From assembly GCA_041600715.1 (NCBI GenBank), contig JBFIJM010000001.1, positions 320,387 to 384,386 on the forward strand: a stretch of 64,000 bases of DNA. Reading direction: 5' to 3'. Every line of letters begins with the position of its first letter. Positions within the stretch are counted from its first letter, which is position 1. Both the position numbers and the translations under genes were made by a program. This DNA comes from Candidatus Saccharimonadales bacterium (GTDB taxonomy: Bacteria; Patescibacteriota; Saccharimonadia; Saccharimonadales; 2-12-FULL-41-12). Shown here piece after piece: positions 42,220 to 45,512 of the stretch. The notes below the pieces were generated by a model. The model saw only the letters and a list, made by a program, of their open reading frames with translations. It made no database searches and was not told the DNA's origin.

Positions 42220-43146
42220 CTATAACCAATTACGACGATGGAAATAGCCAACAAAACCCACAGTAGTAACAGCAACGCCGGCAACTATAATCCAAAAAGC
42301 ATGAGTATTCTCTGCTAATGGTAGTGCGACATTCATTCCCCACAAGCCTCCAGCTATCATCGGGATCGTCAAAAATATACCTATTGAAGTCAATCGCTTA
42401 AAGGTCTTATTCAAGTTATTGGTCGCTATCGTATCGTAGGCTTGACGAATGTTTGACACTGTTCGTATACGTGACTTGCTGACTTCGATAAGCTCACTAG
42501 TATTAAGCATAATATCCTGCACTAAATCACGGTCGTCTTCATACAGGCGCATATATTTACCGCTCTGCAAAGCGTTAAGTACCAATGCTTGCGGTTGCAA
42601 GGCCGTCAAAAACTCGTTTAGATCTTCTTCTAGTTCCAGGAAGCTAACAAATTCTACATTGCTTACAACTGCTCGCCTAAGCCTTGAGCGTGTTTGCAAA
42701 ATTCTTTTACTAACGTGTGTTAACTGCAAGCGATATGATCGATTAATCTCTTCTAAAATATGAAGGAATGTCTTTGTCTTCTGAGTGGTAAGTACTTCGA
42801 CATGTCCGCTTATTATTCTATCAAGCACTGTGTCTACTTTCCTCATGACTGTCACAATATTGTTACTTGTATACACAATAAGCAAAGGCTCAGTTGCTAC
42901 ATCTTGACCTTGGGGATGGCAATAACGTGTAAATACATAGGTTACTGAACCCTCACTCTCTACGCGTGGAGCCTCGTACACATCGGTTGCATCGTTCAGC
43001 AGATCTCTATCAAGGTTAAACTCATTGGCAACATCGTCCAGTTCTTTGCTTGTAGGTGCAACTACATGACACCAACTACCTGCCTTGCTAGAGTCAACTT
43101 TTGTCAGAGTGCGCATTCGCGCCGTGCTGTGGTAATACGTGATCAT
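42220..43146 (-). CDS. corA: CorA-family magnesium/cobalt transporter
   Basis: C-terminal two TM helices with the GMN motif (GGLWGMNV); 308 aa. Confidence 0.88.
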   Translation of the reverse strand: MITYYHSTARMRTLTKVDSSKAGSWCHVVAPTSKELDDVANEFNLDRDLLNDATDVYEAPRVESEGSVTYVFTRYCHPQGQDVATEPLLIVYTSNNIVTVMRKVDTVLDRIISGHVEVLTTQKTKTFLHILEEINRSYRLQLTHVSKRILQTRSRLRRAVVSNVEFVSFLELEEDLNEFLTALQPQALVLNALQSGKYMRLYEDDRDLVQDIMLNTSELIEVSKSRIRTVSNIRQAYDTIATNNLNKTFKRLTSIGIFLTIPMIAGGLWGMNVALPLAENTHAFWIIVAGVAVTTVGFVGYFHRRNWL

Positions 43147-43179: not shown

Positions 43180-44295
43180 CTAGTTATTAACTATTTTCTC
43201 CCAAGGTAGCTCATTTTTACCAAAATGCCCGTAAGCTGATGTTTGACTGTATATCGGTCTTCGCAGATCGAGACCGTCAATAATACCTTTTACAGATAAA
43301 TCGAGTAGTGTCTCTGCGTATTTCCGAATAGTCTCATGTTTTACAGTCTCACTTCCGAATGTTTCTATCTCGAACTGAACTGGAGACGTTCCGCCAATAT
43401 AATAAGCCAGTCGCACTTCTGCTTGTTCTGCGTAGCCTTTAGCGACAATATTCTTTGCAATATAGCGCGATGCGTAAGCTCCAGATCGATCAACTTTACT
43501 TGGGTCTTTGCCAGAGAACGCACCTCCACCTACTCGTGCAAAGCCACCGTAACCATCAACTACAATTTTACGACCAGTAAGCCCTGCATCACTGCTAGGT
43601 CCTGGGATATGCCATGCGCCTGTGCCATTAACTATTAGGTGTTTTTCGCCGATATGATAACCATATTCCTCAAGCGCAGGAGATACCACACTCTTATATA
43701 TATCTTGTTTAATCCGCTCTAATGAAAGTGACTCATGGTGAGGTACAGCAATTGTAACGTGATCGACACCTGCCGGTTTACCATCCACATAATTAACCAC
43801 AACCTGTGCTTTGCCGTCAGGTCTAAGATGGGGTAACAGCCCAGTTTCTCGTGAGTTATCCAGCCCTTTCGTGAGTTTGTGCGCCATAACAATTGGAAGT
43901 GGCAAGTATTCTGGGGTTTCATTAGTAGCATAACCAAATAATATTCCCTGGTCGCCTGCCCCTTCATTATCGACACCAATCGCAATTTCTGGTGACTGCT
44001 GGTGCACATGACTGACGAACTTAGACTTATCAGAAAATCCCCATGTCGGGTCGATATAGCCTAGTTTTTTAACCGTTTGTCTGGCGATAGCCTCTAAGTC
44101 CAGCTTTGCTGTAGTGGTAAGCTCGCCTGCCAGCGTTATCGACTCGTGGGCTACTAACGTTTCTATCGCTACGCGCGCCTGTTTGTCTTGCTCTAGGGCT
44201 CTGTCTAGCACTGCATCACTTATTGCATCTGCTACCTTGTCTGGATGGCCAGAAGCTACCGACTCGCTTGCAAATTGTGTTAGTTTTTTTGACAT
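43180..44295 (-). CDS. metK: S-adenosylmethionine synthetase
   Basis: SESVASGHPDKVAD, GAGDQG, DAGLTGRKIVVD and GGGAFSGKD motifs. Start moved to ATG 44295, because the 17-codon extension in the ORF track covers the SD and a leader hairpin. Confidence 0.96.
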   Translation of the reverse strand: MSKKLTQFASESVASGHPDKVADAISDAVLDRALEQDKQARVAIETLVAHESITLAGELTTTAKLDLEAIARQTVKKLGYIDPTWGFSDKSKFVSHVHQQSPEIAIGVDNEGAGDQGILFGYATNETPEYLPLPIVMAHKLTKGLDNSRETGLLPHLRPDGKAQVVVNYVDGKPAGVDHVTIAVPHHESLSLERIKQDIYKSVVSPALEEYGYHIGEKHLIVNGTGAWHIPGPSSDAGLTGRKIVVDGYGGFARVGGGAFSGKDPSKVDRSGAYASRYIAKNIVAKGYAEQAEVRLAYYIGGTSPVQFEIETFGSETVKHETIRKYAETLLDLSVKGIIDGLDLRRPIYSQTSAYGHFGKNELPWEKIVNN

Positions 44296-44297
44296 AA

Positions 44298-44453
44298 AAA
44301 TATCCTTCCCCTGGACTGTTCCAGAAAAAGGATCTTGAGAATTCAAAATATCTTATCCGTGGAAATTAACCAGGAACTAGATGGAGCACCTTACACATAT
44401 GTAGGTTGCTAGTAGGTCGACGAGCTAGATCTCTCGCTACTTCTTTATATTTT
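44298..44453 (-). promoter_or_regulatory. Candidate SAM-I-clan riboswitch (aptamer ~44345-44453) with SD-sequestering expression platform
   Basis: Hand-folded four-way junction with the GCAACC...GGUGC P3 signature, upstream of metK, plus mutually exclusive downstream hairpins covering GGGGAAGGA. Not verified by a covariance model. Confidence 0.5.
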
Positions 44454-44490
44454 TTTAAATTGTTAACGTTTACAAAATATAGCAGTCATA

Positions 44491-45243
44491 TTAATGGTTT
44501 GCAAACAAAAAGTGTTTTATTCTACGTCTTGTTGCATAAAGTGGACCGAAGGCAAGCAGAGGTAGTATTGTAAAATGATCAACAAATTTTAAGATTTGTA
44601 ATTGTGATTCAAAACCAGATTTTTCTAACTTTCTGTTCAGCGATATGCTGTCTTTGATTGAAACTGTATAGTCTAACGCGCCGTGAAGTAGCATGAATTT
44701 AGGCCGATTTTTAGCTACTCGTATATACGTCCTTGGATCATGTAATTTATCGTTAAAACTAGATCCAAAAACATGCTTCCAATGACGCTCAGATAATGTG
44801 CATGGAGTTGATATTGATATTACTCCATCAAGACCTTCTTTCATTGTTAAAGATGAAATAACCGCTGTATGCCCACCTGCTGAGTGCCCCATTCCAAAGA
44901 TTTTTCTCCCAGGATACTTTTTTTGAACGTGCCCTATTGCTAGGTGTGCATCTTTTATAAATCCAGGAAACGTTTGTTCAGAGTATAATGGATGACCAAT
45001 AATTAAAGTGTGCGCACCAAGTTTTTGGAGCATATGACCCATGAAACGGTACATATCTTTATTGCCGGTTGTCCAGCCTCCCCCATGCCAAAACATGACG
45101 ATTGGAGACTTATTATCATTAACAGGAAACTCATCATACACCATGGCTGGGTGGTCGCCGTAAGAAATGTTGTCCTCTCGATCATACCCTCCCATAACTG
45201 CATTTACAGGTGTTAGAAACTTTTCGCTCCTCGTTTTTCTCAT
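44491..45243 (-). CDS. Alpha/beta hydrolase (esterase/lipase-type)
   Basis: Oxyanion motif HGGGW and nucleophile elbow GHSAGG; 250 aa. Confidence 0.75.
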   Translation of the reverse strand: MRKTRSEKFLTPVNAVMGGYDREDNISYGDHPAMVYDEFPVNDNKSPIVMFWHGGGWTTGNKDMYRFMGHMLQKLGAHTLIIGHPLYSEQTFPGFIKDAHLAIGHVQKKYPGRKIFGMGHSAGGHTAVISSLTMKEGLDGVISISTPCTLSERHWKHVFGSSFNDKLHDPRTYIRVAKNRPKFMLLHGALDYTVSIKDSISLNRKLEKSGFESQLQILKFVDHFTILPLLAFGPLYATRRRIKHFLFANH

Positions 45244-45438: not shown

Positions 45439-45512
45439 TGGGGATTGGCCAAGTGGTAAGGCACCGGGTTCTGGTCCCGGGATCGGGGGTTCGAATCCCT
45501 CATCCCCAGCCA
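45439..45512 (+). tRNA. tRNA-Gln (anticodon CUG), CCA encoded
   Basis: 74 nt cloverleaf. Acceptor TGGGGAT/ATCCCCA, D arm GCC-AAGTGGTAA-GGC, anticodon arm CCGGG-TTCTGGT-CCCGG, T arm GGGGG-TTCGAAT-CCCTC, discriminator G plus CCA. Close to the E. coli tRNA-Gln pattern. Confidence 0.95.

Follow-up and report, generated by a model that had tools for sequence, protein, structure and literature searches.

A predicted SAM-I riboswitch just under the Rfam cut-off in the metK leader of a Candidatus Saccharimonadales bacterium

SAM-I or S-box riboswitches are exemplified by the Bacillus subtilis metK and yitJ leaders and by the aptamer of T. tengcongensis (PDB 2GIS). Genes for S-adenosylmethionine synthetase (metK) and cystathionine gamma-synthase/lyase are classic members of the S-box regulon. 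P4 is the most variable helix of the SAM clan; SAM-I/IV and SAM-IV have no P4 inside the junction and form an alternative pseudoknot with the 3' tail. The SAM-III or SMK box of Lactobacillales metK leaders has an unrelated fold, holds the Shine-Dalgarno sequence (SD) in the SAM pocket and acts purely on translation. In the literature searched, no description of native riboswitches in Saccharibacteria or CPR was found.

The locus studied here is the metK leader on the minus strand of a 64,000-nucleotide stretch of DNA from a Candidatus Saccharimonadales bacterium, called the window below. An earlier sequence-only reading had drawn a SAM-I-like four-way junction in this leader by hand, followed by a hairpin that buries the SD as a translational OFF switch. 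The leader RNA is an ordinary member of the well-known SAM-I class (RF00162), and very probably works as an OFF switch through a terminator-like, SD-hiding hairpin. The features are listed in Table 1.

Table 1. Features of the metK leader and its surroundings, in window coordinates
Feature	Positions	Strand	Description
metK (S-adenosylmethionine synthetase)	43180..44295	-	371 aa, ATG 44295; Pfam S-AdoMet_synt N, M, C domains
AUUUUU run	44296..44301	-	directly 3' of the hairpin; possible terminator U-tract and SD-AUG spacer
Terminator-like SD-sequestering hairpin AUCCUUUUUCUGGA-ACAG-UCCAGGGGAAGGAU	44302..44333	-	14 pairs (5 G-C), loop ACAG
Shine-Dalgarno GGGGAAGGA	44303..44311	-	within the hairpin 3' arm
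Antiterminator / anti-sequestor	44320..44362	-	P4 3' strand, J4/1 and P1 3' strand against linker 3' end and terminator 5' arm
SAM-I (S-box) aptamer	44345..44453	-	P1 5' strand to P1 3' strand; RF00162, clade model R1 and covariation
J4/1	44352..44355	-	between P4 and P1 3' strand
P4: UUCCUGG[UUAAUUU]CCA(C)GGA	44356..44376	-	bulged C at 44359; -4.7 kcal/mol
J3/4 CCAUCUAG	44377..44384	-	CUAG 44380-44377 pairs with P2-loop CUAG 44428-44425 (pseudoknot)
P3: AGCA(A)CC-UACA[UAUG]UGUA-A-GGUGCU	44385..44410	-	SAM-pocket nucleotides GCAACC / GGUGC
P2	44411..44441	-	P2a AGUAG/CUACU, K-turn, P2b GAG/CUC (3 bp), loop AUCUAG
P1 5' strand AAAAUAU	44447..44453	-	pairs with AUAUUUU 44351-44345
UUAACAAU box	44459..44466	-	5 nt upstream of the 7-bp P1
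Promoter-like site (tentative)	44476..44504	-	TTGCAA, 17 nt, TATATT, TG upstream; consensus scan, 9/12 matches

The leader and its SAM-I aptamer

The start of metK had been placed at ATG 44295, and a 371-aa database protein (P0001) bears this out with 100% identity and 100% coverage to MetK from that codon. The gap before metK likewise has the proposed length of 195 nt: the upstream neighbour of the leader, an alpha/beta-hydrolase ORF, ends at 44491, its stop codon occupying 44491-44493. The nearest named relative of MetK belongs to a Candidatus Saccharimonadales MAG (P0096, 67% identity), and dozens of metagenomic MetKs share 65-84% identity with it.

Promoter-like sites of the kind listed in Table 1 were not enriched over shuffles in the consensus scan. 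Of the 13 leaders that reach that far upstream, 11 have the UUAACAAU box at the same position; degenerate forms of it are found in L138b and L140. Across the window it showed no enrichment (nine matches, with 5.1 +/- 2.3 expected), and on this count TTAACAAT was rejected as a general promoter motif.

In a permissive scan of positions 44250-44520 (271 nt), RF00162 matched the minus strand from 44448 to 44350 with 37.1 bits (E = 4e-7, or about 1e-4 after linear scaling to the 64-kb window). The match is significant and the best within its clan at this leader, ahead of the models for SAM-IV and SAM-I/IV, and lies below the Rfam gathering score of RF00162 (44.4 bits). A default Rfam scan of the window therefore misses the aptamer. 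No Rfam match other than SAM-I was obtained at the leader in the 44250-44520 scan. The only report of the default whole-window scan was a tRNA at 45439-45509.

The RF00162 alignment follows the hand-drawn junction almost base for base, and every element of that drawing was found in the sequence where it had been placed. P1 is confirmed as an all-A-U helix. Its inner A-U/U-A pairs we take to correspond to A6-U88 and U7-A87 of 2GIS, with numbers assigned through the Rfam consensus. The asymmetric internal loop of P2 lies at the kink-turn position of SAM-I in the alignment. The predicted K-turn sets CGA (44436-44434) opposite GUC-GA-C (44421-44416) with tandem G.A pairs, and aligns to the consensus gGA / uaUGAA. 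The P3 pairing GCAACC...GGUGC was recognised correctly as that of SAM-I, and the CUAG of J3/4 proposed to pair with the P2 loop sits at the consensus pseudoknot position.

Folding of the whole 201-nt leader gave z = -2.9 and folding of the aptamer alone z = -1.76; P1 was absent from the MFE structure calculated by RNAfold. Judged by its sequence and alignment, the metK leader is a genuine SAM-I riboswitch that scores just under the Rfam cut-off.

Relatives, covariation and clade-specific positions

The upstream DNA of 12 related MetK proteins was examined, and the same leader is present in 13 further Saccharimonadales instances (L041, L042, L043, L045, L046, L126, L127, L128, L134, L136, both copies of L138 and L140). 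In these genomes the RNA precedes metK or, in L126, a gene of the cystathionine gamma-synthase/lyase family that is followed by metK. RF00162 scored 10 of the 13 leaders at 45.6-58.5 bits, above the gathering score, and the metK leader of L138 at 40.8 bits. The leaders of L042 and L126 returned no reported RF00162 match; in that of L126, about 70 nt are inserted into P3.

Two wider scans supplied comparators. Species-representative genomes were scanned with exact 8-mer peptides of MetK. The relatives found there (Clostridia, Borreliella, DPANN) were all at most 51% identical and of no use as a source of orthologous leaders; the Clostridial loci served as canonical S-box comparators. The metagenome scan with a MetK alignment was keyed on the universal motifs GHPDK[VI]AD and TGRKIVVD, and among the matches listed only L046 belongs to the clade. 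The 14-mer GGTGCTCCATCTAG had at least 120 matches in viral contigs. These are due to chance: the clade model R1 found no riboswitch in the 80 loci examined.

R1 is a covariance model made from 12 clade leaders. It was built for realignment because MAFFT alone failed on distal P3 and on P4, and it also recovers the canonical Clostridial S-boxes at 30-49 bits. In the window it detects a single copy with 107.7 bits; with filters off, no further copy scored above 9.2 bits.

In the clade alignment of 14 sequences, with the pseudoknot added, 93.5% of the cells are paired, compared with 37-46% when slid by 1-3 columns, and 14 pairs show double-sided changes, compared with 1-6 in the slid controls. 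Of the five measures, four were reached by none of 500 shuffles, and one, further pair types in the clade alone, was not above shuffles (339/500). Addition of the canonical S-boxes (25 distinct sequences) gave 91.4% paired cells against 37-45% in slid controls, with double-sided changes in 24 of 33 pairs and 0/500 shuffles as high on every measure. The alignments used for these counts were fitted to the model and favour the structure; the margin over slid controls is large even so.

P1, P2, P3, P4 and the pseudoknot are all backed by compensatory changes, in different measure along the aptamer. In the clade, the outer three pairs of P1 co-vary, while the inner four have no double-sided change; three of these are invariant, and in the fourth U-A has once become U-G. 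P2a and P2b are fully paired, with double-sided changes in 4/5 and 1/3 pairs, respectively, and the GA dinucleotides of the K-turn are invariant. The six basal pairs of P3 are invariant or changed on one side only. Its distal stem varies in length and sequence among the leaders and keeps its pairing. All four CUAG/CUAG pairs of the pseudoknot are complementary in the 14 clade sequences, and its third pair (30-193) is A-U in 14 and G-C in 9 sequences when the canonical S-boxes are included. Partner swapping within the leader set gave p < 5e-5 for P4.

A chance resemblance, in which an AT-rich leader happens to be drawable as a four-way junction, could point to the all-A-U P1, to the weak z of the aptamer and to an Rfam score under the gathering cut-off. 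It has a negligible probability: E is 4e-7, the orthologues score above the cut-off, the next R1 match in the window reaches 9 bits compared with 107.7, and the covariation lies far outside the controls. The orthologues and the covariation in both alignments refute it.

The highly conserved nucleotides of SAM-I are listed in 2GIS numbering in PMC3764141 and were mapped to the window through the RF00162 alignment. The window keeps A6, U7, A87 and U88 in P1, G11 and A12 in J1/2, G19, A20, G35 and A36 in the K-turn, G21, A24 and C31 in P2b, and G43, C44, A45, C47, G56, U57, G58 and C59 in P3. These include the three nucleotides of the G11-C44-G58 triple, which reads the methionine moiety (PMC3764141). 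The pocket nucleotides A6-U88, U7-A87, G11, C44, A45, C47, G56, U57 and G58 are invariant in the clade.

Other positions depart from the SAM-I consensus throughout the clade. J3/4 is CCAU in 14 of 14 sequences where SAM-I has AAUU; the conserved A61 and A62, the latter of the A62-G23-C29 triple, are therefore C. The U4-A90 pair is flipped to A-U in a compensatory manner (columns 5-243), A.G replaces C8-G86 as the innermost P1 pair, and the pseudoknot is CUAG/CUAG. Such departures reduce the RF00162 score, and most orthologues are above the cut-off even so. The window copy scores about 18 bits below L041, L043 and L045, probably because of its P4, with a bulged C and without the outer U-A pair, and its shorter distal P3.

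The departures might be taken to mark a variant of the clade whose ligand tuning or specificity has shifted, for example in affinity or in the discrimination between SAM and SAH. The CC of J3/4, the A-U pair in the pseudoknot and the A.G pair in P1 occur in every one of the 14 clade sequences and in none of the canonical S-boxes aligned with them. This reading is highly improbable. The recognition nucleotides of PMC3764141 (G11-C44-G58, A45, U57, P1 A-U/U-A) are unchanged, and the regulated genes are standard SAM and methionine genes.

Competing helices before the start codon

Downstream of the aptamer, the hairpin that had been proposed to bury the only SD is present, and the SD lies wholly inside its 3' arm. 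With -17.7 kcal/mol the hairpin has z = -4.87, and none of 200 shuffles folded as well. It is conserved. Hairpin and a run of U5-U7 occur in 14 of 14 leaders, with AGAAAGGA or GGGAAGGA as SD at the equivalent place in each. The order AUCCUUUC ... GAAAGGAU, U5-U7 and a start codon within 0-5 nt is found in all 13 leaders whose start could be recognised; in L046, the hairpin and the U-run are there and a clear start codon is lacking. Cognate arms paired better than swapped ones (p < 5e-5).

With its stable stem and immediate U-run, the hairpin also looks like an intrinsic terminator. The U-run is no proof of termination, since its length also suits an SD-AUG spacer. In 40 kb of the window, terminator-like sites were modestly enriched (24 observed, 14.0 +/- 3.9 expected; 18 and 13.2 +/- 4.6 in a second count), and the metK hairpin had the longest stem among them.

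The second helix is a long bipartite antiterminator. At its base, the 5' arm of the terminator is paired to J4/1 and the P4 3' strand; at its tip, the linker end is paired to the P1 3' strand as AUUUUGA[AUUC]UCAAGAU (44349-44332). When the pre-terminator transcript, still lacking the 3' arm of the hairpin, was folded, the antiterminator was the free MFE structure in 12 of 14 leaders. RNAalifold on the plain MAFFT alignment recovered the 8-bp base with two compensatory pairs, and cognate strands were better than swapped strands (p = 0.021). In the window alone the helix is weak, with -9.4 kcal/mol and z = -1.17, which is no better than shuffles; its support is therefore comparative.

The tip had been seen before as a small hairpin that would be mutually exclusive with the SD-burying one. 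The overlap is real and a competing fold exists, but two shared nucleotides bring about no exclusion by themselves, and the small hairpin alone is not significant (-2.8 kcal/mol, z = -1.58). It is a mere tip of the longer antiterminator at 44362-44320.

The two helices suggest the following mechanism. SAM bound in the P1/P3 pocket, which the K-turn and the CUAG/CUAG pseudoknot brace, would lock the weak helices P1 (all A-U) and P4. The 5' arm AUCCUUUUUCUGGA would be released to pair with UCCAGGGGAAGGAU. The 14-bp hairpin, followed by AUUUUU and AUG, would then most likely halt RNA polymerase before the start codon, and transcripts that are read through would have their sole SD hidden in the hairpin. 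Without SAM, the P4 3' strand, J4/1 and the P1 3' strand may capture the emerging linker and the 5' arm in the antiterminator. The hairpin would be blocked, transcription would go on and the SD would be single-stranded. What the analysis shows is the identity of the aptamer, its conservation and covariation, and the existence of two conserved helices that compete; SAM binding, the direction of regulation and the balance between termination and translational occlusion are inferred.

Energies were compared between the aptamer plus hairpin with P1 enforced (OFF) and, as ON state, the best fold that leaves the SD and the P1 5' strand free. In the window without ligand, OFF has -42.4 kcal/mol and the best SD-free fold -29.0 kcal/mol; in this constrained ON fold, the long antiterminator has no advantage over P4 with the small hairpin. 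Ligand-free, 12 of the 13 leaders likewise favour OFF, L136 being the exception. An equilibrium switch with such energies would stay OFF, and a co-transcriptional decision, like that of classic S-box leaders, is therefore more plausible. An OFF fold that is stabler than ON without ligand is what kinetic, transcriptional switches usually show.

A purely translational OFF switch, as the sequence-only reading had it, would always make the full-length mRNA; SAM would shift the equilibrium between SD-closed and SD-open forms, and the U-run would be a spacer. Several observations agree with it: the SD is entirely within the 3' arm, AUG follows seven nucleotides past the hairpin, the 5' arm AUCCUUUC is anti-SD-like and nearly invariant, and terminator-like sites are weakly enriched in the window. 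This is rather unlikely, as the SD-closed fold is already 13 kcal/mol stabler without ligand, a U5-U7 run comes right after the strong stem in all 14 leaders, and the architecture fits classic S-box terminator/antiterminator leaders. The OFF logic and the hidden SD of that reading stand, and the terminator-like hairpin and the OFF-favouring energies speak against a restriction to translation. Modelled folding suggests kinetic, co-transcriptional control as the likelier alternative to a purely translational equilibrium, with SD occlusion as a second layer.

A decaying copy that no longer responds, with metK constitutively attenuated or on, would account for the low score of the window leader (37.1 bits compared with 54.9-57.3 for the closest relatives) and for its P4. 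This P4 is bulged and has lost the outer U-A pair of the relatives (GGAUAAG instead of GGAAAAG). It is the poorest of the 14; with 11 of the 13 P4 strands from other leaders, pairing would improve. The window antiterminator, with -10.4 kcal/mol, is also within about 0.1 kcal/mol of the weakest of the set (L046, -10.3). Decay is nevertheless very unlikely. All pocket, K-turn and pseudoknot nucleotides are intact, as are terminator, SD and U-run; P1, P2 and P3 are perfect; P4 variability is expected within the SAM clan, and three other leaders have similarly weak antiterminators. A functional SAM-I switch remains the preferred reading for the window.

Meaning and comparison with described systems

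The metK leader leaves the knowledge of SAM-I riboswitches unchanged. For annotation, it is a case of a true SAM-I riboswitch missed by the standard Rfam gathering threshold. For the biology of the group, a reduced CPR-type genome of about 0.8 Mb retains a predicted ligand-sensing control of its SAM synthetase. What novelty remains lies in sequence changes particular to the clade and in the uncharacterised genes under the same switch in relatives. Saccharimonadales might carry a distinct SAM-I sub-class, marked by CC in J3/4, CUAG/CUAG, a P1 of A-U pairs with an A.G closure and one hairpin that is terminator and SD sequestor together and reaches to the start codon; this switch would have captured genes without a known link to SAM. 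The genes in question are, in some members, those of a fast-evolving protein of 209-215 aa without family match and of a LuxR/GerE-type regulator; the 209-aa gene of the relatives had no match in Pfam or NCBIfam. Such a sub-class is unlikely. If it existed, the changes could adjust affinity or kinetics to the life of an episymbiont dependent on methionine or SAM from its host, and the 209-215-aa protein could have a new function related to SAM or methionine; either would go beyond routine annotation. A review suggests the use of riboswitches for inducible expression in Patescibacteria (PMC11665869), and a native leader that responds to SAM might seed such tools.

Compared with the described classes, the leader is closest to SAM-I. 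It shares the four-way junction of P1-P4, the K-turn in P2 with tandem G.A, the pseudoknot between P2 loop and J3/4, the GCAACC/GGUGC pocket in P3, the A-U/U-A pairs in P1 and the site before metK and methionine genes. The predicted OFF control, in which the P1 3' strand takes part in an antiterminator that competes with a terminator, is also that of SAM-I. It differs in the score of the window copy (37.1 bits), CCAU instead of AAUU in J3/4, a CUAG/CUAG pseudoknot instead of CUGG/CC(N)G, and an innermost P1 pair A.G instead of C8-G86 in a helix that is otherwise all A-U. In addition, the 3' arm of the terminator is the SD and the U-tract abuts the AUG, so that one hairpin could hit both transcription and translation.

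SAM-I/IV (RF01725) and SAM-IV (RF00634) belong with the leader to clan CL00012 and have the P1/P3 ligand pocket in common with it. SAM-I/IV precedes metK in two more distant MetK relatives (L047 and L051). Unlike in these classes, P4 (44376-44356) of the metK leader lies within the junction, between J3/4 and P1, and co-varies. Because of this P4, and because RF00162 is the best model of the clan, the leader is neither SAM-I/IV nor SAM-IV. With the SAM-III or SMK box it shares the control of metK and the predicted SAM-induced sequestration of the SD. In the metK leader, the SD is about 35 nt downstream of the SAM-I aptamer and outside the pocket. With an unrelated fold and an SD that is no part of the pocket, the leader is not an SMK box; its predicted SD occlusion is combined with a SAM-I aptamer.

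Leader elements flanking the SAM-I aptamer

Upstream of the aptamer, the metK leader in the window carries the box UUAACAAU, which ends 5 nt before the 7-bp P1 helix. The same box was found in 11 of the 13 leaders that reach far enough upstream to be counted, and in relatives it precedes the P1 core by 3-9 nt; the leaders of the second L138 riboswitch copy (L138b) and of L140 contain degenerate versions. No enrichment of UUAACAAU was observed elsewhere in the window. The box could represent a -10-like promoter element or a part of the 5' leader.

Full-length minimum free energy folds paired the 5' strand of P1 with the U-run and not with its true partner, because the tail behind the terminator/SD hairpin, GGAUAUUUUU, nearly duplicates J4/1 and the 3' strand of P1, AGAUAUUUU. 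This likeness is probably a by-product of the need of both segments to pair with one 5' arm.

Coordinates of the features in the window and in related metK loci (L numbers)
Feature	Sequence	Position	Strand	Remarks
Box UUAACAAU	window	44459-44466	-	same position in related leaders
Near-identical segments	window	44296-44304 vs 44345-44353	-
CorA-family Mg/Co transporter gene	window	42220-43146	-
tRNA gene	window	45439-45509	+	62.3 bits; upstream of the alpha/beta-hydrolase gene, opposite strand
209-215-aa gene	L041	189-836		between riboswitch and metK
209-215-aa gene	L042	570-1199		between riboswitch and metK
209-215-aa gene	L045	571-1200		between riboswitch and metK
Second riboswitch copy	L138	3128-3253		RF00162, 50.7 bits in Rfam
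161-aa LuxR/GerE-type HTH protein gene	L138	3304-3789		behind second riboswitch copy
Riboswitch with extended P3	L126	43-209
Cystathionine gamma-synthase/lyase-family PLP enzyme gene	L126	254-1486
metK	L126	1501-2622		follows PLP enzyme gene
SAM-I/IV riboswitch (RF01725)	L047	1042-1166		53.0 bits; ahead of metK
SAM-I/IV riboswitch (RF01725)	L051	1033-1151		42.8 bits; ahead of metK

Gene neighbourhood of metK

The CorA gene starts 33 nt behind the metK stop codon in the window, and the gap has no obvious terminator. CorA also follows metK immediately in L045, L127 and L128-L131, and in L133 as a partial gene, and is located near metK in L042 and on the contig of the MetK relative P0011. Both genes may be co-transcribed and hence share the riboswitch. 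On the other side, the window has its tRNA gene upstream of the hydrolase gene. In L128, L134 and L138, too, tRNA genes are found on the opposite strand a short way upstream of metK, which suggests a conserved synteny.

Riboswitch-associated genes in related loci

In three close relatives (L041, L042 and L045), the riboswitch, the SD and the AUGUCA start are retained, with a 209-215-aa ORF in place of metK as first gene; this ORF abuts metK. The encoded proteins are mutually homologous (24-53% identity), had no match in Pfam or NCBIfam, and the window encodes no homolog of them. The second riboswitch copy of L138 is located downstream of metK, has its own terminator/SD hairpin and precedes a LuxR/GerE-type HTH gene, an unusual kind of target for S-box control. 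An insertion of about 70 nt gives the L126 riboswitch a long extended P3; this copy was absent from the output of a permissive Rfam scan. It is the predicted control element of the PLP enzyme gene and the subsequent metK. The loci of more distant MetK relatives, L047 and L051 (54-60% identity), have a SAM-I/IV riboswitch in place of SAM-I before metK.
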